From IMG/VR virus record IMGVR_UViG_3300021399_000152, positions 1 through 64,000 of that record: a stretch of DNA of 64,000 bases; one strand, 5' to 3'. The DNA comes from a virus. Under the pieces are notes generated by a model, which saw only the letters and a list, made by a program, of their open reading frames with translations, was not told where the DNA came from and did not search any database. This document shows positions 2,939 to 60,830 of the stretch, piece by piece (positions within the stretch are counted from its first letter, which is position 1; each line of letters starts with the position of its first letter). Both the position numbers and the translations under genes were made by a program.

Positions 2939-2950
2939 GAGGTGTCCGCC

Positions 2951-5483: not shown

Positions 5484-5494
5484 GGTGAAAGAAA

Positions 5495-20078: not shown

Positions 20079-20104
20079 AAGCTTGCGCGAGCAAGCTTTA
20101 TTGA
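20079..20104 (+). terminator. palindromic hairpin (AAGCTTGC-gcga-GCAAGCTT) with short T-tract
   Basis: Perfect 8-bp stem followed by TATT; immediately upstream of tRNA-Gln. Confidence 0.35.
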
Positions 20105-20173
20105 GGTGTAGTTAAACGGCATAACAAGGGACTTTGACTCCCTCGTCGTAGGTTCGACCCCTACCACCTCAGT
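20102..20173 (+). tRNA. tRNA-Gln(UUG)
   Basis: Canonical cloverleaf: acceptor TGAGGTG/CACCTCA, D-arm GTTA-AACGGCA-TAAC, anticodon arm AGGGA-CTTTGAC-TCCCT, T-arm GTAGG-TTCGACC-CCTAC. Confidence 0.8.
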
Positions 20174-20190
20174 CTTTTTTATAAGGAGAG

Positions 20191-20403: not shown

Positions 20404-20424
20404 TTGCTGCGGAGGATGTATAAT

Positions 20425-41830: not shown

Positions 41831-41843
41831 GACATCATCTCCT

Positions 41844-42935
41844 TTACATGAATGTGGGTGAGTACACAAACTTTAGCCGATCAATTGACATGGTCGTGAT
41901 CGGCGTGATCCAGATATCATCTGTATCAACAATGCGTATATTGTCGTAACTGGTGATAACTCCTTCGCCGATAAAACTGCGAAGAAATATATTATTGTTT
42001 TCCAGCCCCGTTATTTTATAAGGTTTATTCTGAACGACAGCATACTTTCCTATGACATCGTTTGACAAAGGTTTATCAATCTCTAAGCCGAGTTGATCAG
42101 TTTGCGCATCTATAATTAGCTGTCCATGCAAATTACTTGCTAGCGTTCTTGCAGGCGAAATCTGCACGAAGCCACGATCATGCCAAAGATATTTCATATC
42201 TTTATCAGTGCCATTCGTCAGATAGCAATAGCCGTTCAAGCTATCACACACATAGTACTTACCAGCCTGTGTCGTTTCTGCTGCGCTCATTGCCACGATC
42301 TTACAAGTCTGCCCAGTTGTCCTGTTCTCGATGAGCACACCTTGCCCAACATCACCAGCAATTTCCAAGGCAACATCTGCTGTTTCGTTACCGGGGTTCA
42401 TCACATGCAACTGTGTTTCTGCAGTGAGGTTCGTGTATTCGATAGGGAAGGCGCCAGTCATATTCACGAACATGTTTGAATTCGCTACGATATCATCGTA
42501 ATATGGATCATTTTGATCAAGATTTAAAAACTCACAGCGACCAAACGGATAGAAGCACTGCATACGGATCGTGATCATACCGTTAAACTTATTCGTAAGC
42601 TGCGTGTCATCGTAGCTCGTAATGGTCGCGTTATAATAAACCCAAGGCCGCCGCCCAAGCACGAGCTTGCCGGTCGCGCCGACCCTGTAAAAGCTCTCGA
42701 CTTGGGACAGGATACCTTCGGTAATTTTCGATTCTTCAAAAAACATACGAAGCACAATTTCTTTGGGCTTCTTTGTTGCACCATAGAAGTAACCACCATG
42801 GTGACCATCAAAAGTCTGCGAATGTATGTTCGAGGTTGTTGGCCTCCAGACATACATGTCACGAATGTCAGGAGCATACCTGAGGCCAAACTCACCACAG
42901 GAAACACCATTAAATGTGAAGGTCGATAATTCCAC
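41844..42935 (-). CDS. distal tail protein (Dit)
   Basis: N-terminal 'FTFNGVSCGEFGLRY' Dit signature; position between TMP and Tal. Confidence 0.7.
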   Translation of the reverse strand: MELSTFTFNGVSCGEFGLRYAPDIRDMYVWRPTTSNIHSQTFDGHHGGYFYGATKKPKEIVLRMFFEESKITEGILSQVESFYRVGATGKLVLGRRPWVYYNATITSYDDTQLTNKFNGMITIRMQCFYPFGRCEFLNLDQNDPYYDDIVANSNMFVNMTGAFPIEYTNLTAETQLHVMNPGNETADVALEIAGDVGQGVLIENRTTGQTCKIVAMSAAETTQAGKYYVCDSLNGYCYLTNGTDKDMKYLWHDRGFVQISPARTLASNLHGQLIIDAQTDQLGLEIDKPLSNDVIGKYAVVQNKPYKITGLENNNIFLRSFIGEGVITSYDNIRIVDTDDIWITPITTMSIDRLKFVYSPTFM

Positions 42936-42994: not shown

Positions 42995-45900
42995 TTAAAA
43001 ACTAAATTTACTTGTACTGAGTCCTTGCATACTGAGGTCCTTAACGAACTCGCGACCAATCCGAACAGCAAGCTCTTCGAAATCAGCCTCATTGTTGATC
43101 TGGTTCGTGTTGATGTTGATGTCGCCGACCGTAACACGGGCGCCACTTGCCAGAGAAGAGTCGTCATAAATATGACGCACAAAACTGCTGGTGTTAATCT
43201 GCTTGAAAGAGGCAACCATAGTACGCATATCCTGCATGAAGCCACTATCGAGAATGCCGCGCATGGTATTGCGGTCTTCATTATCAAGGAAGGCTTCTGG
43301 CTTGGCGGGCGTGCCGTGAACCATAGCAAGACCAGTGTACTTGACTTCGCCGCCTTCGGAGAAGGGCACTGCATTAAGTCGGTTATTGTTTGCATTTGTG
43401 CTCGTCTTGGTCGGCTTTGCTTGTTGAGCAGTTGGCACGACTCGTTTTACCGTGTAACCCTCATTATATGCTATAAGATTTAAATATTGTTGTGCTCTGG
43501 CTTGGCTGTTAAATGTCTTAACAAGTCTGCCTGTATCGCTATATACACCCCATGTAGATGTTGAATTATTGGTTGTAGTGCTTGGAGAATTTGGACTACC
43601 GGGTCCACCACCACTACCACCTGAACCACCACCGCCGCCGCTTTCGCCGCCGACGTAGTCTGCGAACTCTTCGTCATCATGATGATAAGTTGCCCAGTCT
43701 TCACGCGTTCTCAAATAATACAGATAGCTGCCACTATTAACAGCATCAAGCCATTGATAGAGCAACTCTTCTTTTTCGGTTTCTGAAGCGTTCTTGTATT
43801 GGTCGCTCTCCATCATGAATGCCTTGAAGATATCCTTCCTCGAGAGGATCTGATTAACCTGATCCCAATACGTATCAGTGATGCCAAGCATCTGCTTGTA
43901 CGTATCTTCCCAGCTCTGGACCATCTGGGTTTGAGCGTCTTCAAGACTGTGAGAGTATTCTTTTACGTTGTTCTTCAGCCACTTGAACATATCTTCCTGA
44001 TTCATCTGCATAACTTTGGCAACATCTGTTGAGAAGTTATTTGCATCTTCAAGAAGAAGCTCAAGGTCTTCGTCACCATACTGCTCGTATTTCTCAACAC
44101 CTTTGATCTGGTCGTCGAGAGATTCCTTCTGGGCGTTCGCTTCTTGCTCAGCTGTTTTCCATGCAAGCTCGTCCTCTGTTTCGGCAATCTTCTTACGAAG
44201 TTCTGCTGCATCCTTGGTACGAGTGGAGTCCATGCTGATCAGCGCGAGCTGTCTGCGATACTCGGCAAGCTCTTCATACTTCTTCGCTTCATCTTCTGCA
44301 TCCTTGCGCATCTGCAAGCGTTTGTCGATCAAGCTCTTTTCTTCTTCGAGAGCTTCGCGCTTCTTTTCGAGATCCTTTTTAATTAAATCCCACTCTTCTT
44401 GATGCCTTTGCCTGATAGCTTCAAGAATGGTATCCTGCATTTCAACGGAAGCAGAAAGCATTTCACGCTGTTTCTGGATACGGGCTTCGATCTCTTGGAC
44501 GACCAAGTCTTCAAGATCTGTACGAGCTTTACGAATTGCAGAGTTGTTCTGCTGAATCTTCAGGGTGTTAGCTGTGATCGTATTGTTTGTCTGGTCGAGC
44601 TCTTCCTCATACTTGAGAATTTGTTCATACAGTTTCTGCCAGTCATCAGAACCACGATCAACGGTCTTGAGCTGATTGCGAAGATCAACGATATTTTTGG
44701 AAAGCCGTGAAGCTTTATCTTTCTGTAAAGTGTTTTCGTATTCGATCATATTGTTCTCATTACTGAGCATACCAAGTTGATTATATTTCTGTTCTTGTAA
44801 TTGTGTCATCTTAATACGGTGATCAGCTATGGTGATACGGTTCTTCACATTCTGGAGAAGCTTATCTGTTGCAGACTTCTCTTTATTACCGCCACCGCCG
44901 CCTCCGCCTCCACCGCCGTGGTATGCGCCGGTATTATTCAGTGCGCCAGTAACTGTTGCACCTTTGAGAGCATTCAACACAGTTTCTACAGTGATCTCTT
45001 CACCGTTTTCATGAATTTTGAGAGCAAGTGTGCCGACCAATCCAGCATAGTTTGCCAGCTCTGCAAGACCAGCATCCTGCAAAGACTTAGCTACAGCTGC
45101 AACTTCACTTGCATCGATCTGACCATCAGCAAGTACTTTAAAGTTAATAAGCTGTGTGATATCTACACCATTATTTGCAGCTGATTCAAGACCCTGAATG
45201 AGACGTTGCTTAATTGTTTCGCCAACGCTATTGAGGTAACCCTCATTAGCCGCTGCTTCCATACTGTCAGCAAGCTTAGCCATTTCTTCTGCGCTCATTT
45301 TCTTGAGGTCTTGTTCATCAAGTTCTGTTGCACCAGCAATGACCTTGAGATCAGCAGATTTCAAACCTTTGCCAGCAACGCCCTTACCATTTTTGCCACG
45401 CATTTTATTTGCGGCTATTGCCATATCTCCGTATTTGTTCATTTGCTTGATCATGCTTGATGTAGTCTTCAGAGCAGAAGCTGCGTTCTTGTCTAAGCCT
45501 TCAAGGTTGTTTTTAACTTCATCGCTATAGTCGCCGAATTGTTTCATTGAATTAATGCCGCCATTACGAAGTGTGTTGAAAAGAGCATTGAATACAGTTT
45601 GGCTATCTGCACCTTCTGTATTCAGCAGTTTAAGAGCTTCAGCACCACCATCAAGACTTTGGATCCATTGCTGTAAACCAGTAGTGTCGCCAGCAAGATA
45701 GTTGTTGAATGCTGCGACATCGAACACACCAGCGTCAGCACCGCCAAGGAATGATAAAGCGCCATTATTCTGAGCCCAAGTATCGAGCTGTCCCATACGT
45801 GCAGAATACATTCCATCATAACCAAGAGCTGCATACGAAGAGGCTGCTCTTGCGCGAGCTTCGATCACATCATAATCAGCACCACTTGCAAACTTGAGCG

Positions 45901-48900
45901 AGCCATCCTCATTTGTGGCAAGCTCACGGCCTTCATGTTCGAACAGATCATAGAAGATTGCAGCGATAGCAGGATCAGAGAAGAAGTCTTTCACCGCTCC
46001 TTTGTCTTTCATCCATGCAAGGTCGGAAGATTCAAATGCAGTCTGGAATTCTTCAGCAGAGCTTGAACTGCGAAGCATAGCATAGACATCATCAATTCTT
46101 TTCTGCTTTTCTCTCGTGTCACCAAGATGGCTGGCTTCATCAACCCAGCCTGCAATATCAGCAAAAGAAAAGACGTTGTTTTGGTCGATCTTGGATTGCA
46201 AACCAGCGATCAAATCAATAAAGTCTCCGATCACTGTTCCAATTGCAGTTAATGCGTGGTCGAGAGCAGACTGTTTCGAGTTAATGTCGCTCGTTAATTG
46301 ACTTACAGTAGCACTGGTTATTTGCATAGAGTCGATCTGATCTGTAGTCCAGCCAATTGCTCCAGCTATATCCTTCATTTTCTTAGCATCCAGAGATTCG
46401 CCAGGTTTAGTCATCAGAGCTAATGCATCCAGATATTCATTGTATGTTTTAATCCTGCTCTCAACATCGCTGACGTATTTATTTCTTTGATCTTGTGTGC
46501 CATACAGTTCTGTTGCTCTGCTCATGGTTTCTTGGTCAAAATAATCTGCGTTGGCATTATACATATTAGTCAACAGATTACTTGCTCGTTGCTGTCTGAG
46601 TTGTCTAGCTTCCTCGGAGCTTAATGCCGTGCCTCTCTGAATCAATTGTTCAATACTAAGGCCATTGATATTAGAATATTGGCTTGCTAATGCCGCCTTG
46701 ACTTCTTGATCTTCTCTAGCATAACCACGCAAGATGGCAGTACGACCTATCATACTTGGATTAAGCAATGCATTATAATATTTCATCACATCAGGATTAT
46801 TGTAATCCTGTGATAATGAATTGAAGTAATTTATTCCGGCACTTTCCAAGAATAATTTGCCCATAGTCTGGCGCCAACCATTCTGAACAGCATTTTGATA
46901 TTCAGGGTTTGTTAACATGGTTGACATAAATTCACGCATCATGTCTGAAGACGAAGCACTTAATGCCTGGTTAATAGATGCCGCATCCATGTTGGGTTTG
47001 CTAGTCAGATATCTGTATGCCGCCAATGCCTGATCTTCATATTGATATGGGCTTACATATCCTTTGAAAGCTTCAGATGCTTGATTGGTCCGCGCTGTGC
47101 TTGGCATGAAATAATATTGCCCGTTTGTAGTGGCAAAGAAACCATCACGCGTAGAAAACATATCTTTGACAAATGGCGCATACTCTGGATACGCATTTTG
47201 GAATTCTGCAAGGCCAGAATTTAATGCGCCCCATTCTTTGTCGATGAATGACTGGTATGTTTTTAACTCATCGGCAGTCTTGCCTTTGGTATCAATCTTA
47301 AAGAAAGATGATACTAAGTCGCGATCAGCTTCAGACGTACCACCATTCATGAGTCTTGTGAATGCATTGATAGCTTCGCTTTGTTGCACAAAAGTATTTA
47401 ATGTTGTAGAGACGGCAGACGATGCGTCAGCACCGCCAGTACCAAGTTTGATATTCTCAAGCTGTTTGAAGTTTTCGGCTACCTCTTTCGAGATGATACC
47501 AAGATTTACGAGATCATCATAATGGTCAATCTGAATCTCAACATTGGCTTTCAGGCTCAGTTGGTCAAGCTCTTTCTGAATTTGAGCATAATCAACATCG
47601 GCTGCTAACACCAATGAACCATTTTCATCTCGTTCAAAATTACCGGTATCAGTATTGAACTGGAATAAACGATAAAGCACAGATGCAACATCTTTATTAC
47701 CAGCAAACTCTTTAAACTGGTCAGCATTTTTTACCCAATCAAGATTACGTAACTGTTCAATGAATGCCTGTCCATTCTGAGCTCTGTTGGCAGCACCAGC
47801 AAGATCAGCATATTGTTGTTGACGATATCTTTGAGCACCCTTGCCACTGCCGGTATTAACCCAATCATACAATTCTTCTAATGTCCACTGTTTCGATTCT
47901 GCTGTAAGATCTTTGGTGGCATTGCTCAATGAGGTGGAGAAACCATCCGCAGCGTCTCCAGCCAAAGCAACAGAAGAAGTAAAGGTGGAAATTGTGCTTT
48001 CAAGAGTTATCGAAGCTTTAGCAATGCTTTCATCAGATGTCGTCAAACCAGCAATAGCATCCTCGGTCATACCGCCAGTTCTTGCAACTTCCTGAATAGC
48101 AGAAAGTGATCTTGCATATTCAGGCAGCCTCTGTTGGAATGCAAGAGCAGCACGACTAGTTCTGTATTGTTCTGAAGTTTGATGAACTTGATTGAGATAT
48201 TGCAACTGCTCTTGTTCAGTGCCATACAAATTTTGCGCACCAGATAAAATAGAGTAATCGTATCCATAAGGATTTGCAGCATATGACTGCATCAGTTTAT
48301 TTTGAGAATATGCAGAACGAACTCTGTTTATATCCTGTTGTGTTAGCTTTTGTCCTTGCGACACTTTGGGCAATAATTCTTCTAACAGGCTTTGCCCAAT
48401 CCATTGCCCAAGAACATTTTTCAGCGGATTGTTGTTATCTAAGTTTTTCAACACAGACTGATCAGATTTAAGTAAGGCATCATAATATGATTTAACTGTT
48501 GCATTATTGTAATCTGTGTTAAGAGGATTAAAGGCATTATATCCATACGCGCCTTGAGAGAAAATATCTGCAACACTTTGCCAATCTCCATTGTTAATAA
48601 AGTCAAAGTACTGTGCATTTTTCGATAATTCATTCAAGAAATCCGAAGATGTTCTCTCTTGCAATTGAGCATGGAAATTGTCTGGTATTTTGTAAGTTTG
48701 ACTTTCTTGATCATAAAAACTGTTGAGCAAATCATATGCGTTCTTATAATCATTGACTGCATTGTATTTAACAACATTCGCATCGAGTTTCTTTTCGTAA
48801 TCATACATAGAACGATCAGCTGCCTGATATATGTATGACCCTGTTTTATCATTCCAGATTAATCCAGACTCCAAAAGCCGTGAATCAATATCTGCCCTTT

Positions 48901-51900
48901 GCTCATCAGAGACGTATGAACGAAGCATGTTAGCTTCACGCACAGCTGTATCCATATCAGATTTATCATTTAGCAACATTTGTTTGTATTTATAAGATCC
49001 AGCTTGCACATCTTCTACTTCACGCCCAAGCATTGCAGCTACAGTTTGGTAATCCTGACTCAAGGCGCCGTTATCATTTGCAATTCTCGAAAGAGCACTA
49101 TAATAGTCAGCTCTTCCAGTAATTGAATTGACTATCTTGTCAATAGACGTTTGTCTTTCTGTGCCAGATGTAGATGTCTGCAAAGTTGTATAGTTGCTAG
49201 CAAAGTCACTTGAGATAAGACCAAGATCACGCTGTGCGGTAATTTCCTTTTGCGCAATTTCATCTAACAACTGTTTTCTGATTAATTCATCTGTGCCTTG
49301 GCTGTCAACAAACTGCTGCAGATTGGGATATGTAGCTTTAACACGCGCAAGCAATCCTTCGTTGGTCTGAGCAAATGCTTGAGTTTTGGCATACGGATCC
49401 GCAGCATTAAGTATCTGTCTTGCCATATCATTGATTTGAGCATTTGTATAATAAGTATCGAATGATGCAAATGGGTTTTCTTTATTCATTGTGATGCCGC
49501 CATTGGTATAGCGTGCAAGCACATTACCATTTTCATCCATATCAAATCCGATACCGTACATGCTAAACAAGTTCCACATACTCTGAAGCATCGGGTTGTT
49601 GTTGACAATATCACTTAATGCTTTGCCTTTGTTTGACGGGAGTTTGGCATAGCTTGATAATGTCTTACTATAATTTTGGTCAATGCCAGACAGGAAAGAA
49701 CCGCTGTTTGCATAATAATTCTGCATGAATTGGGTATAGATTGCATCAAAATTATCCTCGAGCATTTGAGGTGTTGCTCCGGGAACATACTTTGCAATGA
49801 TTTCCCTTAACTTCTTATCACTACGCGCAGACTCTTTATCAACACTCATCACCTGATATTGCTCTGCTAATGCCGTTGCATACTTTGTAATGTCTTCCAT
49901 GTAAGAAGTAAACGAATTGGCACCAAGAGACTTTGATAACAAATGACGCCCAAGATCATCCTGATCGTATACACCAGTACCTTTGAGCAGATCTGCCATT
50001 ATTTCAGTGAGATCATTGTCAGCCTGCTGCAGCTTTTCAATATTATCTACTCCTCTGGTTGCCTCGGAAAATTTGTTGATGTCTTCGGCATTGCTTGCCC
50101 ATAAAGCAAATAGCTGTCTATATTCATCAACATAACCCTTTTCTTTGCTTGTTAATTTATTAGCGTCAACAAGATCACCGAGAGATTGACGAGCACGTAA
50201 ACCAGTTGAATTTGTTATAGCTGCATTAGCGATGTCATTAAAGTTCATTGCACGAAGAGCATTAAGCTGCTGCTTAACTTCTTCCGAATCTGCGGACTTG
50301 TAGAAGCTGTCAATGGCTTGCGTGATAGCTTCTTCTGTGAGCTCATCGAAACCAATCAAACCATTGTAACTATACCGGAAAGCATTCTTATCATTTGGCT
50401 TAAAAATATCATAGATAGTACGGTCGCCATTAATGAATGATTCCATATATTTTTTAATATTGGCAGAGCTTAAACCTTCATCGCTCATCTGTTTGAGTTC
50501 TTTGTCATAGTATTGCCCGATGTAGTCTTGTGCGAATCCTTTAATCATCTCATCGCTGGTAATACTCATCGTTTCAAAAACAGGGCGCAAGTTATCTGTA
50601 AATAAAGTTTCGATCTGGTCAGCTCTCAAACTTTCGATAGTTTGTTTGCTTTCTTCCAAAACATTATTTAAAACACTGCGCGGTTGTATCATTGCAGTTC
50701 TAAAACCGTTGACTATGCTGTAAATATCGTTAAGATCTGCTTCATCTCTATCGATAGGATAAAGAGCATATTCCTTGAGGATTGAAGCAAACTCTTTGTA
50801 CGATGTGATTTCTTTACCACCAACTTTAAGACCGGGTGTTTGTTTGATATATTTATCGAGCGCATCCGTAATATCATTGATATTTCCAACTTGTTCACCA
50901 TTTTCATTCCAAAAGTTGGTATCAATTGCATTACTCATACCAGATGCATTTGCGAACAATAATTCCGTTAGTCCACCTAATGTGCTAGTGCTGGAAAATA
51001 ATCTGCCTTGCAATACTTTGCTTAATTCACCATATGACCCATTGGCAAGTAGCTCTTTTTCACTATCAGTAAGAGATATACCTATGTCTTTGAAGTCTTG
51101 TTCTGTTAAAATATCTTTGTCGCTTCGATATAATGCTTCTAAATTATCATACAACTGTGGAGTTTTACCAACAAAGTTATTTAATCTTGCATACACGTAT
51201 CCATCACTAGTCAATTTCGTACCAGTATGTTCAGCAAGAAATGTTTGCTCTGTATCTTTGTATGTGTTAAGACTTTCAGTAATGCCACCCATAGCTTCTG
51301 CTAACAAGGTTGAAGCATCAGTTTTATTTTGCTGCTCGCTTGCTTCTTTTGCTCTCTTTGCAACTTCAGTGTAATATTCAAGAGAACCAGAAGCTTGGTT
51401 AACATTATCAGTAAGGCCAGAAAAATACACTGACAACGTTTGGACCGCAGTACCAAGAGCATCGGTAGCCTCTGTAGGAATGTTATCAAATGTGTCTTCA
51501 TACTTTGTCGTGATGTTATCAATATCATTGATCGCATCTTGAACCGCTTTTCTGCGTCTATCTTGTTTTTCTTTGAGTGCATTTGTATTTGTTCTTGACA
51601 GTTCACCATCTGTTTCCTTTTGTTCCGGTTTGCCAAAAAGCGCATTTCCGATTCCACCAGCTGTGCCAGCAACACCGGCAATTGCACCAATAGCAGCAAC
51701 AGTACTAATCAGACCAGCAGAAGCAGCAGCCCATTTAGTAATAGCCAAAGCATCAGGCATAGTTGCGATATCTTTAAGGAAACCAAAGACCGCTATCTTA
51801 ATTGACAATGCACCAAGAGCCGCGATTAATGCTGTGATCACAGGGATCGCCGCACTGCCAGCCTCACTCAGATTTGTGAAACCTTGGACCAAACCAGTGA

Positions 51901-54900
51901 CACCATTGAGCAAACCAGTGATCATATTATCCGAACCAAGGCTTTCAACGAAACCATCAAATGTAGACTTCAGGTTATCCATTGCAGCCTGAATTCCTTG
52001 GATTACAACTTCATACTTACTCTGAACTGTGTTATCAGAATTATCAGCAAGACCAAGATATTCATCAAGCAGCTTGCCGCCATCTTCGCCCATGCCAGCC
52101 ATAAGTGTATTGAACATGTTAGCCTGACGACCGCCAGCCATTGCATAAGTAATGTTGCCTTTCTGTAAGTCAGACAACCCTTCCCATACAGAAGCAAGTT
52201 CTCGAAGCACATCGAAAGAACTACGGAACACATCTTTGCTTGATCTTAATCTGATGCCAGCAGTTTTCAATGCGGTTTCAACATCATTGATACTTGTGGT
52301 TTCACCGGTTTCGTCCGTAATGAAACCTTCTTTTGTAACACGATTCATACGGCTGAACAATGTCTGGAAAAATGTACCAGCCTGTGCACCACCGAGCTGT
52401 GTCTTACTTGTTGCAATAGTCAGCATTGATGTCAATTCATTGTAGGAGACTCCGGCAGTCTTTGCAGAGGCCGCAGCTTTCTGCATACCTTTTTCAATTT
52501 CTTCTGCGGTCGTAGCTGCACTATCGCCAAGAGCAGTGAGTACATCCATAGCCTGATTAATATTGGACACGAGTCCAGTTTGAATAGCAGTTGTAAGACC
52601 TTTTGTTGCATCAGTGATTTTCGCACCGGTTACAGTACTAAACTTAACGATAGCATTTGTTCTTTCTTCTACCTCTTTATCTGAAAGACCCTGTCTGTAA
52701 AGAGCAGCCTTAGTTGAAGTAACATTGGAAACAGATGTTTTTAATTCTTTTGCTTGCTTGATAGAAGAAGCACGCACTTCACCCATCTCACCGGTAGACT
52801 TACCAGAAATTGCTTGAATAGTCAACATGTCAGCGTTGAACTGACGCACGAATGTAGAGGCTTCTTTAAAAGCAGTTTGCAATGCTCGCTTGCCTAACTG
52901 AAGAAGGAGATTTTCCGCAGCATTGCTGACATTCATTAACGTAGTACGAAGCAGACCACCAGTAGAACTGAATTCTTTCATGGCAGCATCTGCCTGAGTT
53001 AAGCTTGCATCGTAGTCGGCAAGAGCATTATTGGCAATACGGATGTTTTCATCAATCAAAGCAAGCTTATCTGTATCGGTTGGATCAGTGTGCTTCCTTT
53101 GATAATTTAACTGATTGATATGAGCATTTGTTCTGTCAATTGCAGTTTGCGCTGAATTGCGTTGGTGCATCCATGACAAATACTGCTGATCATTATACTG
53201 CCAACTACGGCCCACAAATGTCGGACCATACTGTAAGCGAGCCATGTTATACTGCCTCTTAGCAGCATCAAGCTGAGCCATGTTAATTTTATGCCCAATG
53301 TCACCATTAGATTTTGTTTCTAATAATTGAAGCTTTTGACGTTCCTGTTCATCCTTTATAATATCCTGCAAGATTTCACCGGATTGAACTTTGCCATTTG
53401 CATCAATATATTTTTGTAAAGCAGAAGGTATATGTTGTTTACCATCACTGCCTTTAAAAGCATCGTCTTGAAACAAAGATTTAAGCTGCGTTGCCAAAGA
53501 AGCACTTCTAAGTTCTGACATTTTCATGCTTGATGTGCCGACCCCAGTAAGAGCAGCGGTAATGTTGGCAACTTGTTCCATCTGTTTGTTGTGGAAAGCC
53601 TCAAGCTCAAGTTTTTCATTAGCATCTAAATCAATAGATTGTGAACGGGCAAGTTGTTGTTTAAGTCGTTTAACTTTCAAATATTGTGCATACTCATCTG
53701 CATAATTCTGTTTAAGAAATGCTTCACCGTTTGCCTGACCTAAATAACCCTCAATTAAACCAGTACGCAAATTAGCGCTATTTTCCAATATATCATCTTG
53801 AAGCATCTTTTCAACAGCTTGTTTTTGACTGCGTTTTATGTCAAATGAGCTTTTGATTTTGGATCCACTTGTCTGTGTCTGATATGCATCAATTGCTTTA
53901 TCAATGAGTTGACTACGATATTCTTGCAAATCAAAACTATCAAGATCACGCAGCAATGCATCATATAGATGTTGCTGATCCAGATTTAAATTTTCACCCT
54001 CGAATATTTTGGCAATGGTTGCTTTGCTTTGATCAATATCAAACTGCTTTTTAGCAACCGCAGCTTGTATGTCTGCACGAGTATCTGACGCACCAATAAT
54101 ATCATTAACTGATGCTCGCTGTGATGTTAATGCATCGCCAATATAACGTTGACGGAGCTTTTCCATGTTATCATCAGTTAGAAGAGCTTGAGCCTGCATA
54201 CTAAGTGCAAGAGCCTTGTCGTCGGAATACAGACCGCTTTTTCTGAATTCTTCGATATTACCAAGATGTCTTCCTACCATCAGCTTGTAATTATCAAGCT
54301 GCTGTTTAATGCTTGGCACCTTTTTATCTGGACCAACCTCACCGCTGATTTCTCTTGATAAAGTATCATATTCATCTTCGATGATTTCGTCAGCCTGATT
54401 GCTTAATGTTTCCTGAAATTTTTGCCGAGCTTCTTCCGCCTTCAAACCTAACTTCTGTGCAAGTCTCTGGTTTTGTTTATATCCTTTGACTCGTGCAGCA
54501 GTTTCTTGCAGTTGAGAATTGAAGTCGCTTATTTTTGCATTATATTCCTCTTCAGAAACTTCATTCTTTTTCTGCTCGTCTGTCATAGTGCCAGAAGCTT
54601 TTGCTTTAGCAATATCTTTTTGCTGTTTTATAAAAGCACTGCGTTCATCTTTTATTTTCTTACCAGTACCTTTACTTTCATCAATAAGTTTACTCAACTC
54701 ATTGTAATCATTATTCGCATTCTGTACTGCCTTCGCTAAATCATTCCATTGTTCTGTCAAACCTTTTGCTTCTTTAGAAGCGATCATTCCTTTATTCGTT
54801 CTTTCAATTTGATCAGCAAGGTCAGAATAGCTACGGATAGCGGCTTCTGGAACAGTCCTATAATAAAGATCTTTTATATCATTTGTTTCTCGCTGTAACC

Positions 54901-57900
54901 TTGCAGCTTCTGCGAAATTACCACGAGCTTCAAGAGTTGCAATTGTATCTTCGTTCCCTCGGATTGTTGCGTGATAGCTGTCCCAAATGTTACCTATTGT
55001 TTTTTCGTCCTCTGGAATTAATTTTCTTTGGATCGATTTCGACAGCTTTTGTGTTCTCTCCATCGCCTCTTTGTAATCTTCATGCGAAGTTAAAACACCG
55101 CCCAAAGCACCGGCATCAGAGATTCCTGTGCCACGCATTTGCTTGATTGCGCGTTCAGACAATTGCAATTCTTTCGCGAACTCATCGTCGATTCCGCCAC
55201 TAAACATTAATTTATTAGCAAGTAAACTAGCTCTTTGTATTGCATCAAGTCCAAGCCCGGAAGTTGAAAAATTCTGTATTGTTTGAATGACACGCGATGC
55301 TGCACGCACAGCATGCGCTATGGATTCTTGACTAGAGTCTATAGCATACATGTTTTGTCCAGCTGCAGCGTCAGCCAAAAGCACATTCAATGCACCAATA
55401 CCATTGTTTTTGAATTTATCAGGACCGCCTTGACGGAACTCGTCAGCATTTGCATACATCTGCAGCTGGAAGGCAACAGCTCGTTTTTTATCCATTGTGA
55501 AATCTTCAAGACCGCCATATGTTTTAATATCAATAATGTTGAGCTTATTATCTTTGTCCAGCATTCTGAACAGCAAGTCCTGATGACCATGCATATCAAT
55601 GGATTTTGACGAGTCACCAAGTTGCTCACCAAGTTTACTAATAGTCAGATCATCTTCGCTACCGATATATTCATTTGCTAACTCTGGGAGAATAGACAGA
55701 ATGCCCTTTTGATTTTGAGATGACATAAAAGCTTTGAATCTTCTGTATTTCTTTTGCAATCTGGATTCTGCTATATGACCACCATTGGGCTTAGAAGTAA
55801 TTTCATCAATCATTGCTTCAATACGTTCGTCATCCCAGTTAGCATCTTTGCCCAATGCCCGAAGCCTATCACTAAATGATTCAAATTTAATATTCTTTGA
55901 ACTATCTTCTGGATCTACTATTTCTTTACCATTCCAGATATCTTCAAGCAGTTGTCTCTTAACAGCTTCTGGCAAAGCTCGTGTTGCATTTGGATCATCT
56001 TTCAATTGCTTGCGCACAAGCTTTTCGCGAATATCAAAGTAATCCTGAATCATATCTTCTGCAGCATGACCAAACATAGTATGTGCATTTGTACCAGTGT
56101 CTCGCTTGGTGTCCATTTGTCCAAGCTGATTAACAACCCAGTCAACAGGGTCTTCTGCAAAATGGATCAAGCTTGTTACAGACCATCCAGTATTATCGAG
56201 TTTATCTTGTATAGCATCGTGTGGGAGATATTTAAGTTTACCAAGCGCAGAGGACGGATCAACACGTTCATACTGCCTTTTAGATGACAAAGCCATTTTG
56301 GCAATACTGTCGAAGTCAAGATGGCTTGTGCTATATCCACCGCCGAATCTTTTAAAAGCACGCATAGTACGTTTAATTGAATCGGAAGCATCATTGATGT
56401 GTTCATCTGTCAAGCCGTAATTAGGGTCAAGCAAGTTGCTAAGAACAGTTCCACCAAACTCGCCAATAATATATTCTGCTTCTTGATGGTTATGTCCATT
56501 TCTCATTTCAGCGTTAATTGCTTTCGTGCGCATATCAAGCAACGCGTCAGCATCATGTTGCGATGCAATAACATAGTCGCCGCGAAGTTCGCCAAGAAGC
56601 AAGCTTTCCATGCCAGTAATAAATTGTCTTGTTTCTTTTGTTAATGCCGATTCTGATGCCTCATTTAAATAACCTTTATCTTTAAGTCTTTGTAAATTGC
56701 CCAGAGTAGAGTTGGCAAAAGCAGTACTCCAACTTACACCATTATCCAGCTGCACACCGTTTTGTGCAGCGGTACTTCTTGCAAGTAATGAAGCTAAGAT
56801 GTTCCCAGACATATGTATCGATGGCAAATTCATTTTGAACAAATTTGTCTTTAAGAAACGACCATAGTCAATATTGTTTTTACTATCTCTGCTCTTCATT
56901 AATTGGTTGTTAAACTGGTCCCAAGACTTATAACCAAACAAAATATTTTTTGCTGTATCTGGTGTTTCAAAGAAATAACCAGTTTTTGCAGAAGTAGAGT
57001 TTGTATCGTATTGGTCAAAAGCCATGATAAGTTCTTTCGCAATATCTGGAGTGATATCCATCTGCATTGCGTTTCTGGAAATAGCATTAGGCCCGCCCAT
57101 TCGAATTGATTGCATCATAGAGGCTGTGACCCACCGTCCAACATCCAACGCATTACGCGGATCGAACTTTTTCTGGTCACCAAAAATGCTACGCTTTTGT
57201 TTCTCAAGAATACGGTCGCGCTCATCCGGGGCAAGCTGAGCTCTCGCAACAAGATCGTTATGATATGTAACAGTCTTATCCCAGATTTTATTCATCATGT
57301 CTTGCATGGTAGTGCCATCTTTGCTCATAAGATCAATGATATCTGACATATCACCGTCAAAGTCAGCACCTTGCATTAATCCGAGAAGAGGAGAGTCTTG
57401 TGCCAAATAGATAGCATTCGGGTCCATACCAAGCTGTTGGACGAGCTTCCTGAAATTAGTACTTTTAAGTGCCTTATCATTAGCTCTGTTATTTATTTTT
57501 TGTGCTGATTGGATCTGTGCCGGGAAACGGCTAATACCCAACAGTGTAGCCATACTCTTAGAGAACACAGCATCGTTCTCGCCTATACGTAATCTGGCAA
57601 TATCTGCCGAGCTTAATTCTTGCCCATTGGCATCCTTCGGCAACAGATCTTCTATAACTTGCCCAGTCTTTTTATCGATAAAACGCCTTGCTTTTCCGTT
57701 AGTAATCGGGCCAGCTTCCGGTACCCAGCCTCCATCCCACATATTCCGCGGAACTTGGTCGGCACCGATTTGCCCTCTTTTATACATTTCATTGATAGCA
57801 TCTGAGAATACATTGATTGCCCAAGGAGCCAGCATGCCACGATGCGCCTGTACTCCCTCAGGCATAGGAAGATCGCCTCGACTCATACGTTCAATCATAT

Positions 57901-60406
57901 GAGTTCTAAATGCTTCAATACGATTCTTGTAAGGTTTCTTATTTAATAGAGCGGCACCGCCTTCTGAAAGCAGGCTGGTTGAGAGGGCACTGTCATCAGC
58001 GAAAATATATTTCGCCGCACCTGTTGGCGTACCAACACTTCTGAATATATCCCAGAATGTTTTTTGAAACACATCGGCTTGGTTCGCATCAATATCAAGT
58101 GTCTGAGCAAGCTGTGCAGGAATCCATGTTAAATGTGTACGCCCAGCTTGATTTGCAGTTCTATTAACATAGATACTATTGTCGGCAATGTTCTGTGCAA
58201 TAATTTTTTGGATCTCATCATAAGAAGCATTTTTGCCGAACCTTAATCCAGCACCCTTTAAGTCTTCCATATTGATGACCATCTGGGTGTCCTTTGTAAT
58301 CTTTTGCAATGTGCCGCCATAGCCAGGAACTACGATTTCACCATTCTTGTTGCCGGTAAAAGCTTCAACAACATTACCCATATTGACAGAGTTCAGAACA
58401 CCTTTGTAGCCAAACATACGAGCCTGAAATGCGTTGCCACCAGTCAACCCGCTACTGATATAACTAGCACCGTTCAATCCTGGAACTTTTGTTTTATCGT
58501 TCGCACCAGTGTATGCTGCCATATCAACGATAACAATTTTGTCTTTGTCAGGCAAAGCATCTTTACCATACAGTTGTCGTATATCTACACCTTCTGTAGC
58601 GATCTTGGAACTGTACTCCATGAACTTGGCAAAGTCTTGGCTGTTATCGAAAACTCTTGGAGTAATGCCACCAGTAAAGAAATTTTTCAAACCTTGTTTA
58701 TTTTCAATGTTATCAACTATGTCAGCGCGAACCATTTCAATGCCAAGGGACTTCGGATTAATTCTGGTTGCTTTGAACTTTGTTTTTTGACCGCCAATTT
58801 TAACTGACGTTCCTTTTGTGTACAGTTCGCCAACTTGACGCATAAGATTATCGCGTACATCCTGCGGAGTAGATTCGTCGATCAAACGCGGATCCAAATC
58901 AATATAAAAGACATAATCAAGAGCAGAATTGTGAGGGAGTACTCGACCACCCTCTGCAGTTCTCATTATTTTGTCCAACCCCATACTGCCATTGACAACC
59001 ATCTTGTGTGCTCGATCAGTCTCACTATAAGGATCTCCGCTCTGCCAACTTCTGTGCTGTGCAATATCGTCTAATGAATAATGAGTAACCTGATAAGCAT
59101 TAGGAGTCGCATCAAAATGAATGTTGCCTAATTGCCTCGTGCTGTTATTAATTCTATTAAGATCCACCTTGGGATTCTTTGCTTGCGCTTTTGTGCGCAT
59201 CTGAGATACAACTTGTGTGTTTAAATCATTGATTTGTGATGAACCATACAGAAGGGGAGTAAGCCAATCAAAATGATCCGACAGGAATCTGGCAGCACTC
59301 ATAGAACCGTTCAGCAATTTATTGTTTTTATTCAAGATGCGTTCAAAGTCGTCAGGATTATTTACATCTTTGATACCATACATCGGCATGCCACGAGCGC
59401 CGTTTTCGATCATCTGATACAAATAACCGGCAGCAGCATTAACTTGCTGTCTTGTCACGTGCCTATTAACACTCAAAGTGCCTTTTGATCTTGATGCAAT
59501 GCCAGCAAGTTCTGCAGCCTGAGCCATATAAGTATTTTCTTGAATTACATCTCCAAGACTCTTTTTCTGTCTTCTGGTAAGAAAGTCATTGTTTGTAAGT
59601 AATGAAGCAAAGTCTGCATTGGACACTTGTGTAAGACCAGTGCGAGCTTTCTTGAAAGCTTTCGGAAGCATATCCTCATAACTCTCAAAAGAGCCAATAT
59701 GACTATGCTTCATACCTTTGAAATGTTGCATGTAGTCATATCGTTGCACAGCATCCAAAACATTCACAATGCTGTAATCGACAAGTGACTCCATAAAATT
59801 ATCTAAGTTTTGACCTTTGGGTATTTTGCGCTGTTTGCCTTTTGCTGTCTTTGTCTGAAAGAAAGCCAAGCTCGACATGCTTTCCAAAATACCTTGATAT
59901 TCTTCGGTTGCCATAACAGCTGAGCGTATATATTTATCAGGAGATAAAGAAGTAATTCGACTTGTGTTATCTCCGAACGTGTTGCCAACTGACCGAATAA
60001 GTCTGTTCAAAGCTGGAAGCTGCTTTTCAATATGATGGATGTCAGACTCACTAAAGTGGAACCCATTCAGTGTTTTAGAAAGAGCTTGCAGCTTAGACAA
60101 ATCGTGTGAAATAGCAGTCATTGTCTTAGCGCCAAATTCATATTCACCAGTACGAAGCTCAGATGTATATGAATTCATTTTAGTATCTGGATCTGTTAAT
60201 TTCTCTTTAGCGGAGTCCATCAAATCAACGGCATCCTGAACTTCTGTGCGTAAATGCCGTGTGTAATTATTAAAAATTGTTGGTCCTCTGCTCGCTGTTC
60301 TCTCTATATTTTCCAAAGACTGATTTAATTTTTCGCCAGCATCAGCTGCCGCAATAAGATCTTGATATCCATCAAGTTGTATTGTCATTGATAATACATC
60401 AGCCAC
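42995..60406 (-). CDS. giant tape measure protein (5,803 aa) with ~2,400-aa N-terminal polyvalent-like extension
   Basis: AGGAG RBS; uninterrupted ORF. TP901-type tape measure core at nt ~52330-52990 (...AIQTGLVSNINQAMDVLTALGDS...GVSYNELTSMLTIATSKTQLGGAQAGTFFQTLFSRM), Gly/Ala-rich hydrophobic segments, periodic aromatic helical repeats, typical C-terminus (...VTVGDININTNQ...). Position MTP-G/GT-TMP-Dit-Tal. Confidence 0.85.
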   Translation of the reverse strand: MADVLSMTIQLDGYQDLIAAADAGEKLNQSLENIERTASRGPTIFNNYTRHLRTEVQDAVDLMDSAKEKLTDPDTKMNSYTSELRTGEYEFGAKTMTAISHDLSKLQALSKTLNGFHFSESDIHHIEKQLPALNRLIRSVGNTFGDNTSRITSLSPDKYIRSAVMATEEYQGILESMSSLAFFQTKTAKGKQRKIPKGQNLDNFMESLVDYSIVNVLDAVQRYDYMQHFKGMKHSHIGSFESYEDMLPKAFKKARTGLTQVSNADFASLLTNNDFLTRRQKKSLGDVIQENTYMAQAAELAGIASRSKGTLSVNRHVTRQQVNAAAGYLYQMIENGARGMPMYGIKDVNNPDDFERILNKNNKLLNGSMSAARFLSDHFDWLTPLLYGSSQINDLNTQVVSQMRTKAQAKNPKVDLNRINNSTRQLGNIHFDATPNAYQVTHYSLDDIAQHRSWQSGDPYSETDRAHKMVVNGSMGLDKIMRTAEGGRVLPHNSALDYVFYIDLDPRLIDESTPQDVRDNLMRQVGELYTKGTSVKIGGQKTKFKATRINPKSLGIEMVRADIVDNIENKQGLKNFFTGGITPRVFDNSQDFAKFMEYSSKIATEGVDIRQLYGKDALPDKDKIVIVDMAAYTGANDKTKVPGLNGASYISSGLTGGNAFQARMFGYKGVLNSVNMGNVVEAFTGNKNGEIVVPGYGGTLQKITKDTQMVINMEDLKGAGLRFGKNASYDEIQKIIAQNIADNSIYVNRTANQAGRTHLTWIPAQLAQTLDIDANQADVFQKTFWDIFRSVGTPTGAAKYIFADDSALSTSLLSEGGAALLNKKPYKNRIEAFRTHMIERMSRGDLPMPEGVQAHRGMLAPWAINVFSDAINEMYKRGQIGADQVPRNMWDGGWVPEAGPITNGKARRFIDKKTGQVIEDLLPKDANGQELSSADIARLRIGENDAVFSKSMATLLGISRFPAQIQSAQKINNRANDKALKSTNFRKLVQQLGMDPNAIYLAQDSPLLGLMQGADFDGDMSDIIDLMSKDGTTMQDMMNKIWDKTVTYHNDLVARAQLAPDERDRILEKQKRSIFGDQKKFDPRNALDVGRWVTASMMQSIRMGGPNAISRNAMQMDITPDIAKELIMAFDQYDTNSTSAKTGYFFETPDTAKNILFGYKSWDQFNNQLMKSRDSKNNIDYGRFLKTNLFKMNLPSIHMSGNILASLLARSTAAQNGVQLDNGVSWSTAFANSTLGNLQRLKDKGYLNEASESALTKETRQFITGMESLLLGELRGDYVIASQHDADALLDMRTKAINAEMRNGHNHQEAEYIIGEFGGTVLSNLLDPNYGLTDEHINDASDSIKRTMRAFKRFGGGYSTSHLDFDSIAKMALSSKRQYERVDPSSALGKLKYLPHDAIQDKLDNTGWSVTSLIHFAEDPVDWVVNQLGQMDTKRDTGTNAHTMFGHAAEDMIQDYFDIREKLVRKQLKDDPNATRALPEAVKRQLLEDIWNGKEIVDPEDSSKNIKFESFSDRLRALGKDANWDDERIEAMIDEITSKPNGGHIAESRLQKKYRRFKAFMSSQNQKGILSILPELANEYIGSEDDLTISKLGEQLGDSSKSIDMHGHQDLLFRMLDKDNKLNIIDIKTYGGLEDFTMDKKRAVAFQLQMYANADEFRQGGPDKFKNNGIGALNVLLADAAAGQNMYAIDSSQESIAHAVRAASRVIQTIQNFSTSGLGLDAIQRASLLANKLMFSGGIDDEFAKELQLSERAIKQMRGTGISDAGALGGVLTSHEDYKEAMERTQKLSKSIQRKLIPEDEKTIGNIWDSYHATIRGNEDTIATLEARGNFAEAARLQRETNDIKDLYYRTVPEAAIRSYSDLADQIERTNKGMIASKEAKGLTEQWNDLAKAVQNANNDYNELSKLIDESKGTGKKIKDERSAFIKQQKDIAKAKASGTMTDEQKKNEVSEEEYNAKISDFNSQLQETAARVKGYKQNQRLAQKLGLKAEEARQKFQETLSNQADEIIEDEYDTLSREISGEVGPDKKVPSIKQQLDNYKLMVGRHLGNIEEFRKSGLYSDDKALALSMQAQALLTDDNMEKLRQRYIGDALTSQRASVNDIIGASDTRADIQAAVAKKQFDIDQSKATIAKIFEGENLNLDQQHLYDALLRDLDSFDLQEYRSQLIDKAIDAYQTQTSGSKIKSSFDIKRSQKQAVEKMLQDDILENSANLRTGLIEGYLGQANGEAFLKQNYADEYAQYLKVKRLKQQLARSQSIDLDANEKLELEAFHNKQMEQVANITAALTGVGTSSMKMSELRSASLATQLKSLFQDDAFKGSDGKQHIPSALQKYIDANGKVQSGEILQDIIKDEQERQKLQLLETKSNGDIGHKINMAQLDAAKRQYNMARLQYGPTFVGRSWQYNDQQYLSWMHQRNSAQTAIDRTNAHINQLNYQRKHTDPTDTDKLALIDENIRIANNALADYDASLTQADAAMKEFSSTGGLLRTTLMNVSNAAENLLLQLGKRALQTAFKEASTFVRQFNADMLTIQAISGKSTGEMGEVRASSIKQAKELKTSVSNVTSTKAALYRQGLSDKEVEERTNAIVKFSTVTGAKITDATKGLTTAIQTGLVSNINQAMDVLTALGDSAATTAEEIEKGMQKAAASAKTAGVSYNELTSMLTIATSKTQLGGAQAGTFFQTLFSRMNRVTKEGFITDETGETTSINDVETALKTAGIRLRSSKDVFRSSFDVLRELASVWEGLSDLQKGNITYAMAGGRQANMFNTLMAGMGEDGGKLLDEYLGLADNSDNTVQSKYEVVIQGIQAAMDNLKSTFDGFVESLGSDNMITGLLNGVTGLVQGFTNLSEAGSAAIPVITALIAALGALSIKIAVFGFLKDIATMPDALAITKWAAASAGLISTVAAIGAIAGVAGTAGGIGNALFGKPEQKETDGELSRTNTNALKEKQDRRRKAVQDAINDIDNITTKYEDTFDNIPTEATDALGTAVQTLSVYFSGLTDNVNQASGSLEYYTEVAKRAKEASEQQNKTDASTLLAEAMGGITESLNTYKDTEQTFLAEHTGTKLTSDGYVYARLNNFVGKTPQLYDNLEALYRSDKDILTEQDFKDIGISLTDSEKELLANGSYGELSKVLQGRLFSSTSTLGGLTELLFANASGMSNAIDTNFWNENGEQVGNINDITDALDKYIKQTPGLKVGGKEITSYKEFASILKEYALYPIDRDEADLNDIYSIVNGFRTAMIQPRSVLNNVLEESKQTIESLRADQIETLFTDNLRPVFETMSITSDEMIKGFAQDYIGQYYDKELKQMSDEGLSSANIKKYMESFINGDRTIYDIFKPNDKNAFRYSYNGLIGFDELTEEAITQAIDSFYKSADSEEVKQQLNALRAMNFNDIANAAITNSTGLRARQSLGDLVDANKLTSKEKGYVDEYRQLFALWASNAEDINKFSEATRGVDNIEKLQQADNDLTEIMADLLKGTGVYDQDDLGRHLLSKSLGANSFTSYMEDITKYATALAEQYQVMSVDKESARSDKKLREIIAKYVPGATPQMLEDNFDAIYTQFMQNYYANSGSFLSGIDQNYSKTLSSYAKLPSNKGKALSDIVNNNPMLQSMWNLFSMYGIGFDMDENGNVLARYTNGGITMNKENPFASFDTYYTNAQINDMARQILNAADPYAKTQAFAQTNEGLLARVKATYPNLQQFVDSQGTDELIRKQLLDEIAQKEITAQRDLGLISSDFASNYTTLQTSTSGTERQTSIDKIVNSITGRADYYSALSRIANDNGALSQDYQTVAAMLGREVEDVQAGSYKYKQMLLNDKSDMDTAVREANMLRSYVSDEQRADIDSRLLESGLIWNDKTGSYIYQAADRSMYDYEKKLDANVVKYNAVNDYKNAYDLLNSFYDQESQTYKIPDNFHAQLQERTSSDFLNELSKNAQYFDFINNGDWQSVADIFSQGAYGYNAFNPLNTDYNNATVKSYYDALLKSDQSVLKNLDNNNPLKNVLGQWIGQSLLEELLPKVSQGQKLTQQDINRVRSAYSQNKLMQSYAANPYGYDYSILSGAQNLYGTEQEQLQYLNQVHQTSEQYRTSRAALAFQQRLPEYARSLSAIQEVARTGGMTEDAIAGLTTSDESIAKASITLESTISTFTSSVALAGDAADGFSTSLSNATKDLTAESKQWTLEELYDWVNTGSGKGAQRYRQQQYADLAGAANRAQNGQAFIEQLRNLDWVKNADQFKEFAGNKDVASVLYRLFQFNTDTGNFERDENGSLVLAADVDYAQIQKELDQLSLKANVEIQIDHYDDLVNLGIISKEVAENFKQLENIKLGTGGADASSAVSTTLNTFVQQSEAINAFTRLMNGGTSEADRDLVSSFFKIDTKGKTADELKTYQSFIDKEWGALNSGLAEFQNAYPEYAPFVKDMFSTRDGFFATTNGQYYFMPSTARTNQASEAFKGYVSPYQYEDQALAAYRYLTSKPNMDAASINQALSASSSDMMREFMSTMLTNPEYQNAVQNGWRQTMGKLFLESAGINYFNSLSQDYNNPDVMKYYNALLNPSMIGRTAILRGYAREDQEVKAALASQYSNINGLSIEQLIQRGTALSSEEARQLRQQRASNLLTNMYNANADYFDQETMSRATELYGTQDQRNKYVSDVESRIKTYNEYLDALALMTKPGESLDAKKMKDIAGAIGWTTDQIDSMQITSATVSQLTSDINSKQSALDHALTAIGTVIGDFIDLIAGLQSKIDQNNVFSFADIAGWVDEASHLGDTREKQKRIDDVYAMLRSSSSAEEFQTAFESSDLAWMKDKGAVKDFFSDPAIAAIFYDLFEHEGRELATNEDGSLKFASGADYDVIEARARAASSYAALGYDGMYSARMGQLDTWAQNNGALSFLGGADAGVFDVAAFNNYLAGDTTGLQQWIQSLDGGAEALKLLNTEGADSQTVFNALFNTLRNGGINSMKQFGDYSDEVKNNLEGLDKNAASALKTTSSMIKQMNKYGDMAIAANKMRGKNGKGVAGKGLKSADLKVIAGATELDEQDLKKMSAEEMAKLADSMEAAANEGYLNSVGETIKQRLIQGLESAANNGVDITQLINFKVLADGQIDASEVAAVAKSLQDAGLAELANYAGLVGTLALKIHENGEEITVETVLNALKGATVTGALNNTGAYHGGGGGGGGGGNKEKSATDKLLQNVKNRITIADHRIKMTQLQEQKYNQLGMLSNENNMIEYENTLQKDKASRLSKNIVDLRNQLKTVDRGSDDWQKLYEQILKYEEELDQTNNTITANTLKIQQNNSAIRKARTDLEDLVVQEIEARIQKQREMLSASVEMQDTILEAIRQRHQEEWDLIKKDLEKKREALEEEKSLIDKRLQMRKDAEDEAKKYEELAEYRRQLALISMDSTRTKDAAELRKKIAETEDELAWKTAEQEANAQKESLDDQIKGVEKYEQYGDEDLELLLEDANNFSTDVAKVMQMNQEDMFKWLKNNVKEYSHSLEDAQTQMVQSWEDTYKQMLGITDTYWDQVNQILSRKDIFKAFMMESDQYKNASETEKEELLYQWLDAVNSGSYLYYLRTREDWATYHHDDEEFADYVGGESGGGGGSGGSGGGPGSPNSPSTTTNNSTSTWGVYSDTGRLVKTFNSQARAQQYLNLIAYNEGYTVKRVVPTAQQAKPTKTSTNANNNRLNAVPFSEGGEVKYTGLAMVHGTPAKPEAFLDNEDRNTMRGILDSGFMQDMRTMVASFKQINTSSFVRHIYDDSSLASGARVTVGDININTNQINNEADFEELAVRIGREFVKDLSMQGLSTSKFSF

Positions 60407-60705: not shown

Positions 60706-60716
60706 AAATAATTAAA

Positions 60717-60791
60717 TGCCCAAGACGAGACTTGAACTCGTAGTTGTACGGATTTTAAGTCCGCTGTGTCTGCCTATTCCACCACTCGGGC
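60717..60791 (-). tRNA. tRNA with anticodon UAA (Leu) but class-I-sized variable region
   Basis: On - strand: GCCCGAG-TG-GTGG-AATAGGCA-GACAC-A-GCGGA-CTTAAAA-TCCGT-acaact-ACGAG-TTCAAGT-CTCGT-CTTGGGC-A; D-arm nearly identical to the tRNA-like family. Confidence 0.65.
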
Positions 60792-60830
60792 AAGCTTGCT
60801 AAGGACACGAATGCCCCTAGCAAATTGCGA

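Follow-up and report, generated by a model that had tools for sequence, protein, structure and literature searches.

RESULTS

A giant tape measure protein with predicted N-terminal enzymes

The 64,000-nucleotide stretch of viral DNA analyzed here (the window) corresponds to positions 1 to 64,000 of the IMG/VR virus record IMGVR_UViG_3300021399_000152 and carries on its minus strand a giant open reading frame (ORF; 42995-60406) that encodes a protein of 5,803 amino acids (aa) without interruption. Residues are numbered from the GTG start as residue 1, and every feature of this protein described below lies on the minus strand. From the N to the C terminus, the protein comprises a helical region, a predicted two-barrel RNA polymerase, a domain that is very probably a RecB-family nuclease, a coiled coil, a tape measure core with transmembrane helices, and a long helical C-terminal part.

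The tape measure core (PhageMin_Tail, PF10145; aa ~2550-2758, 52133-52759) was matched with an E value of 2.8e-23, nine PHROG tape measure families covered aa ~2300-3450, and a Kyte-Doolittle scan revealed two segments (aa 2846-2878 and 2892-2917; 51656-51871) that are hydrophobic and transmembrane-like. The profile match, the transmembrane segments, and the position of the gene next to those encoding Dit and Tal identify the giant protein as a siphovirus tail tape measure protein. For its N-terminal 2,000 residues, no match was found in PHROGs or NCBIfam. The same polymerase-nuclease-tape measure architecture is encoded on many independent contigs, which rules out an assembly artefact.

A probable RecB-family nuclease domain ahead of the tape measure

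A first-pass annotation of the window had placed a RecB/Cas4-like PD-(D/E)xK nuclease motif set in the N-terminal extension of the tape measure protein, on the basis of three short peptides. We found all three in a single minus-strand frame inside the giant ORF: MHGHQDLLF (aa 1605-1613; 55568-55594), LNIIDIKTYGG (aa 1622-1632; 55511-55543), and AFQLQMYANA (aa 1645-1654; 55445-55474). The annotation had pointed to the right place with coordinates that were off by 1 to 6 bases, and the residues it numbered D1625 and K1627 are the intended ones counted one too low, the correct numbers from the GTG start being D1626 and K1628. Its motif labels, however, were shifted by one: its motif I is motif II (D1610), its motif II is motif III, its motif III is the QxxxY motif, and the true motif I lies upstream at G1446.

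The domain spans aa 1395-1720 (55247-56224) and, as had been proposed, lies N-terminal to the tape measure part of the giant tail protein. The Pfam family PDDEXK_1 (PF12705) matches aa 1408-1709, with 25 bits when a 2,000-aa segment was searched and 30.6 to 31.4 bits (E values of 4.3e-7 and 2.4e-7) for the isolated domain; the curated gathering cut-off of this family is 22 bits. Nine of the 12 nuclease domains of the protein family matched PF12705 individually, the best of them with an E value of 6.2e-11.

An alignment of these 12 domains (alignment A3; the window domain and 11 homologues with 18 to 32% identity to it) has only eight invariant columns, namely, G1446, R1460, G1607, D1610, D1626, K1628, Q1647, and Y1651. 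Motif I (G1446-HAAEDMIQ-1454; 56045-56071) contributes the invariant G1446, and it is followed by E1584 (55655-55657), an acidic residue upstream of motif II that falls in the nearly invariant column E190. Motif II (G1607-HQD1610-LLF; 55568-55588) contributes G1607 and D1610, motif III (I-I-D1626-I-K1628-T; 55520-55537) contributes D1626 and K1628, and the QxxxY motif (Q1647-LQM-Y1651; 55454-55468) contributes Q1647 and Y1651. The upstream acidic residue on which the first-pass annotation had made its call depend, D1610, is therefore among the invariant positions. Six of the eight invariant columns (G1607, D1610, D1626, K1628, Q1647, and Y1651) are motif residues of the RecB family (GxxD, DxK, and QxxxY), and the domain is therefore likely to be under selection for catalysis. 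The order of the motifs is also that of the RecB family, with an Asp at the end of a strand (D1610), then D1626-I-K1628, and then Q1647 and Y1651 in the following helix. The pattern hhDhK[TS] occurs only once in the giant protein, at motif III. When that protein was shuffled 2,000 times, the motif set, written as a loose regular expression, recurred in 1.45% of the shuffles.

The nuclease domain has a restriction-endonuclease-like alpha/beta core, the fold that had been put forward as a check, with a helical insertion of ~120 residues between motif I and the beta-sheet core. Its structural matches are AdnAB, Dna2, ACE1, and RecE, followed by MGME1, Cas4, ExoV, RecB, AddA, and lambda exonuclease; the closest matches act in the processing of DNA ends or of 5' strands. 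AlphaFold2 confidence for the domain was low. Sequence searches of the PDB with the single sequence and with the profile returned nothing relevant for the nuclease domain, and an hhalign comparison of the nuclease profile with the RecE C terminus was not significant, aligning only an N-terminal S.S..a..P / G.A.H stretch.

Based on the Pfam match and the conserved motifs, we conclude that aa 1395-1720 very probably form a RecB-family PD-(D/E)xK nuclease domain. Its catalytic set (E1584, D1610, D1626-x-K1628, and Q1647xxxY1651) is complete, and the domain is likely to be catalytically active. The RecB half of the earlier "RecB/Cas4-like" label stands, with a Pfam score above the cut-off and invariant motifs, but the Cas4 half in its strict sense does not. 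The entire 5,803-residue protein contains no cysteine, which makes a four-Cys cluster impossible and rules out a Cas4-type iron-sulfur (Fe-S) nuclease; for this reason, we describe the domain as RecB/RecE/AdnA-like rather than Cas4-like. Such a composition could reflect a protein that is ejected or unfolded in transit.

The nuclease follows a predicted two-barrel RNA polymerase

The nuclease does lie within an N-terminal extension, as the first-pass annotation had it, but this extension is not anonymous, since it houses a single-chain RNA polymerase module of the two-barrel (double-psi beta-barrel) type at aa ~230-1330 (56417-59719), recognized by its motifs, by hhalign, and by its predicted structure. 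This identification changes the likely role of the nuclease, which begins ~65 residues after the polymerase ends.

Three stretches of the translation gave the clue, namely, FQARMFGYKG (close to aa 660), SRFPAQ (close to aa 960), and GADFDGDM (aa 1013-1020), which resemble signature motifs of the paired double-psi beta-barrels in multisubunit-type RNA polymerases. Alignment A1, which comprises 18 sequences over aa 230-1330, is invariant or almost so at positions that include F660, Q661, R663, K668, R960, P962, Q1012, D1015, D1017, G1018, and D1019. The beta-like barrel motif F660-Q-A-R663-MFGY-K668 (58403-58429), whose F, Q, R, and K vary little or not at all, aligns with FMVRLPWVKG of YonO from the Bacillus prophage SPbeta; within it, the second-barrel basic residues R663 and K668 (FQxR....K) are invariant and align with the YonO R/K. 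The RxP motif R960-F-P962 of the beta-prime-like barrel (57521-57529) is invariant in the 18 sequences and aligns with RSP of YonO, and the catalytic metal-binding motif D1015-F-D1017-G-D1019 (57350-57364) recurs as DxDGD in all family members whose sequence extends over this stretch. No other DxDGD motif was found among the window ORFs of at least 250 aa that would indicate a second polymerase gene.

Comparison of A1 by hhalign with YonO, a single-peptide RNA polymerase that has been characterized by experiment, gave a probability of 92.8% and an E value of 4e-7 over 288 columns, and both barrels were aligned motif for motif. Pairwise BLAST to YonO was not significant, and only the profile comparison gave a match. 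The AlphaFold2 model of aa 230-1330 had a predicted local distance difference test score (pLDDT) of 81.7 and a predicted template modeling score (pTM) of 0.80, and its top Foldseek match in the PDB was maize RDR2 (E value of 1.3e-4). Its overall fold resembles those of solved two-barrel polymerases; the structurally closest are phi14:2 gp66 and QDE-1, and the model also matches P23-45 gp96. The last of these is a 5,002-aa tape measure protein of a Thermus phage whose N terminus is a two-barrel virion RNA polymerase with DFDGD at 779-783 (Chaban et al. 2024, PMC10770324; PDB 8h2m/8h2n). Judged by these alignments and the model, the module is a predicted RNA polymerase of the YonO/QDE-1 type.

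The fusion defines a protein family in gut-type metagenomes

We searched 1.84 billion representative proteins exhaustively with HMMER, using aa 505-1704 as the query, and obtained 41 relatives, including giants of 3,695 to 5,883 aa that share the architecture. The family numbers at least 18 full-length members plus fragments. A hidden Markov model (HMM) of the nuclease domain located it at the same relative position in ten full-length members (P0002-P0008, P0010, P0011, and P0013) and in the fragment P0025. In all, the nuclease follows the polymerase in 14 proteins, namely, the window protein, 11 homologues, and two loci from a metagenome-assembled genome (MAG). The latter two, L007 (JAZQFG010000001.1) and L008 (JAZQFG010000009.1), are different family members on two contigs of one Acutalibacteraceae MAG, are 31% and 29% identical to the window protein, and likewise have intact nuclease motifs. 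P0024 retains motif-level remnants of the nuclease (GEADFIF, IVDSKN, and QMGTY) that fall below Pfam significance, and in a sister clade (P0017 and P0019-P0023, with DEDGD, DIDGD, DLDGD, or DYDGD) the polymerase leads straight into the coiled coil and the tape measure core. The polymerase-nuclease-tape measure arrangement is conserved in proteins of 3.7 to 5.9 thousand residues from gut-type metagenomes and from the Acutalibacteraceae (Clostridia) MAG.

Among 50,697 phage records, neither megablast nor tblastn of aa 1-1750 gave a match, and a pattern scan of viral contigs found nothing. A word-indexed protein search also returned nothing for the single sequence or the nuclease alignment; this null is not evidence of novelty, because the representative library contains P0001, a 5,803-aa protein that is 98% identical to the window protein.

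Other features of the giant gene and its genome neighborhood

The C-terminal tape measure part of the giant protein contains an internal duplication of ~360 residues, in which aa 3922-4277 (47576-48643) and aa 4492-4849 (45860-46933) are 24% identical (E value of 1e-23) and which presumably lengthened the tail. A run of at least nine glycines (aa 5164-5172; 44891-44917) lies between the helical body of the tape measure and a coiled coil rich in charged residues (aa ~5180-5500), and a second linker, rich in G/S/P/T, lies near aa 5560-5580 ahead of the C-terminal domain. On the same strand, within the block of tail genes and ~310 bp upstream of the giant gene, there is a transfer RNA (tRNA) gene, tRNA-Leu (anticodon UAA; 60716-60792), which may, for example, supply a rare TTA decoder for the 17-kb gene.

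The surroundings of the giant gene form a siphovirus tail module. Dit (41844-42935) is encoded directly downstream of it and a Tal-like protein (36107-41869) downstream of Dit, followed by baseplate and fibre proteins and then by a lysin with SpoIID, NlpC/P60, and SH3 domains. A tyrosine integrase gene (20404-21537, plus strand) adjoins the genes for tRNA-Ser (CGA; 18653-18735, plus strand) and tRNA-Gln (UUG; 20101-20174, plus strand), and on these grounds the element is probably a temperate siphovirus or a prophage. Several metagenome contigs carry an identical lysin and, close to it, the same integrase. The host most probably belongs to the gut Clostridia. A lifestyle that is probably temperate is unusual for a carrier of a virion RNA polymerase.

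Elsewhere in the window, a minus-strand gene (27814-32085) encodes a 1,423-aa protein with eight repeated stretches that match phrog_25468, a family of unknown function (E value of 2.6e-68); this protein is probably a repeat-rich fibre or adhesin. Nonstructural ORFs on the plus strand at 1994-2938, 4140-4751, and 14903-15865 encode SPFH/Band 7, RNA ligase 1-like, and DHH/DHHA1 phosphoesterase domains.

DISCUSSION

A possible role for the nuclease at genome entry

The anatomy of the giant protein suggests that, together with its DNA, this gut phage probably injects a module made up of a polymerase and a nuclease. The P23-45 polymerase gp96 transcribes pre-early genes, and the proposed site is the tape-measure pore during DNA entry (PMC10770324). 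By analogy, pre-early transcription by the window polymerase would be expected at the entry pore, and delivery of the nuclease together with the tape measure appears somewhat favored.

We propose the following sequence of events. The tape measure would leave the tail at infection and form an entry channel, as proposed for gp96, and the enzymes at its head-proximal N terminus would then come to lie at the cytoplasmic mouth, beside the leading end of the genome. There the nuclease, as a Mg2+-dependent DNA nuclease acting in cis with the polymerase, would resect the linear phage DNA as it enters, removing the 5'-ended strand and exposing a 3'-ended single strand. The polymerase, if it prefers single strands like its relatives, would transcribe this strand during translocation, resulting in host-independent pre-early transcription. 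For both gp66 and QDE-1, single-stranded DNA is a far better template than duplex DNA (10.1101/2020.03.07.982082). We chose end resection as the best single mechanism because the closest polymerases prefer single-stranded DNA and because the closest nuclease matches process DNA ends or 5' strands. That the nuclease and the polymerase cooperate on phage DNA in this way, through end resection, is a tentative proposal, and we are more doubtful still that the two enzymes are injected as a single "resect-and-transcribe" machine that operates where the tape-measure channel opens into the cell.

Several observations weigh against this proposal. In motif I, most relatives read GxAxHxAIE, whereas the window protein has E1450 at the His position and Q1454 at the Glu position; E1450 could still ligate a metal, but this motif is the single weak point of the catalytic set. 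No nuclease was detectable in the sister clade (P0017 and P0019-P0023) despite its polymerase-tape measure fusion, and the nuclease is therefore a clade-specific accessory that is not required for polymerase function. The gp96 polymerase also works without a Pfam-detectable nuclease, and YonO, which Forrest et al. are said to have described in 2017 as a DNA-dependent polymerase, reportedly has no known need for one. Finally, delivery may require a folded module of ~1,700 residues to pass through the tail tube.

The strongest alternative, already raised in the first-pass annotation for host DNA, plasmids, and defence loci, is an offensive nuclease that, once injected, cuts the host chromosome, plasmids, competing prophages, or defence DNA, so that the host is shut off or its defences are disarmed. 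A catalytic set that is intact under purifying selection would suit such an enzyme, as would its accessory occurrence in one clade only, which is often seen in counter-defence modules, and the carrier protein is expected to be ejected into the cell (PMC10770324). However, an integrase beside tRNA genes marks the element as probably temperate, and degradation of the chromosome on entry is incompatible with lysogeny. The covalent tether to a transmembrane tape measure would moreover limit the reach of the domain, and only few copies would enter from each virion, as tape measure proteins are present in a handful of copies per virion. We consider an offensive role unlikely, and end resection of the entering phage DNA seems more likely than an attack on host DNA.

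Less likely again is a role as a DNA-end holder, or pilot, in which the RecB-like domain would mainly bind the 5' terminus of the packaged DNA and anchor it to the N terminus of the tape measure, so that the genome is drawn in and shielded from RecBCD/AddAB, with cleavage minor or absent. The geometry suits this idea, since in siphovirus tails the N terminus of the tape measure is the head-proximal end and adjoins the DNA terminus. RecB-family domains also have a pocket for 5' ends, the QxxxY motif is invariant, and motif I of the window protein is degenerate. However, all 12 diverged sequences retain D1610 and D1626, which are metal ligands, and the catalytic residue K1628, and selection for binding only would not be expected to preserve these positions.

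We regard an RNA-directed role as improbable. Here the domain would trim or terminate transcripts of the polymerase, or cut host RNA for primers in the manner of the cap-snatching endonucleases of influenza viruses and bunyaviruses. The fusion directly after an RNA polymerase invites this comparison, and PD-(D/E)xK nucleases fused to viral polymerases do exist; influenza and bunyavirus polymerases carry fused PD-(D/E)xK cap-snatching endonucleases. Relatives of the window polymerase also extend RNA primers in vitro (PMC10770324). Nevertheless, the strong structural matches are all RecB-family DNA nucleases, and the Pfam match is to PDDEXK_1 and to no RNase family.

A chance cluster of motifs, or a decayed and inactive remnant with a purely structural role in spacing the polymerase from the coiled coil, could account for the low AlphaFold2 confidence, the missing sequence-level PDB match, the nonsignificant hhalign comparison with RecE, and the altered motif I, but the first was rejected and the pair as a whole is largely refuted and most improbable, given a Pfam E value of 2.4e-7, a motif set found in only 1.45% of shuffles, and catalytic residues that are invariant across the family.

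Taking the anatomy and the proposed mechanism jointly, a polymerase and a nuclease that enter together and act on the incoming phage DNA form the best overall explanation that we can offer, and we judge the chances for and against it to be evenly balanced.

Significance

The first demonstration of a virion RNA polymerase fused to a tape measure dates from 2024 and concerned a single group of Thermus phages (PMC10770324). The proteins described here represent a second tape-measure-polymerase family, without sequence relation to the Thermus one, in phages of human-gut-type Clostridia, and most of its members additionally carry a RecB-type nuclease with intact catalytic residues. The family is sizeable and uncharacterized, occurs in gut-type metagenomes and Clostridia, and its polymerase-nuclease-tape measure fusion is a variant of the recently found tape-measure-fused virion RNA polymerase. 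The polymerase-tape measure fusion is thus no curiosity of thermophiles and reaches a phage that is probably temperate, and a probable DNA nuclease is added to the enzymes that siphoviruses may deliver through the tail. Our proposal also offers a testable idea for how phage polymerases that prefer single strands may be supplied with template; if it is true, the coupling of resection to transcription would add a new mode of initiating viral gene expression, here in a probably temperate gut phage. For annotators, the family is a caution that "tape measure protein" labels on ORFs of 4 to 6 thousand residues may conceal enzymes.

Comparison with known systems

The literature search found no paper that joins tape measure, two-barrel, and nuclease, and a nuclease is mentioned neither in the gp96 study (PMC10770324) nor in the gp66 preprint (10.1101/2020.03.07.982082). 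Supplementary Data 4 of the former lists an RNA polymerase family, "Cyano_RUMTOR_01356," with DFDGD, from gut Siphoviridae (PMC10770324); the window polymerase may belong to this family, which we note as an unconfirmed lead.

With respect to the nuclease, RecB, AdnA/AdnB, AddA, RecE, and lambda exonuclease, which have no Fe-S cluster, sit in helicase-nucleases or recombination exonucleases, whereas the window domain sits in a virion tail protein beside a predicted RNA polymerase. Cas4, AddB, and Dna2 combine the RecB fold with a four-Cys Fe-S cluster, in contrast to the cysteine-free window protein.

Among the polymerases, gp66 of the crAss-like phage phi14:2 and the N4 virion RNA polymerase are internal or ejected podovirus proteins rather than tape measures, and no nuclease domain has been reported for them. 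YonO is the closest by sequence profile, and it comes from a temperate siphovirus of Bacillota, as the window protein probably does; YonO itself, however, is a free-standing 839-aa protein that is fused to neither a tape measure nor a nuclease.

The closest parallel in architecture is gp96. Like gp96, the window protein is a giant tape measure with an N-terminal single-chain two-barrel polymerase of ~1,000 to 1,300 residues and DFDGD, followed by a tape measure with transmembrane segments. It shows no detectable sequence similarity to gp96 (by tblastn of aa 1-1750, and with an hhalign probability of 1% for the polymerase profile) and is closer to YonO. Pfam detected only Peptidase_M23 and no PD-(D/E)xK domain in gp96, whereas the window protein has the nuclease and no M23. 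The two phages also differ in lifestyle and habitat: P23-45 is lytic and infects a thermophilic Thermus host, while the window phage is probably temperate, comes from a gut-type metagenome, and has relatives in Clostridia.

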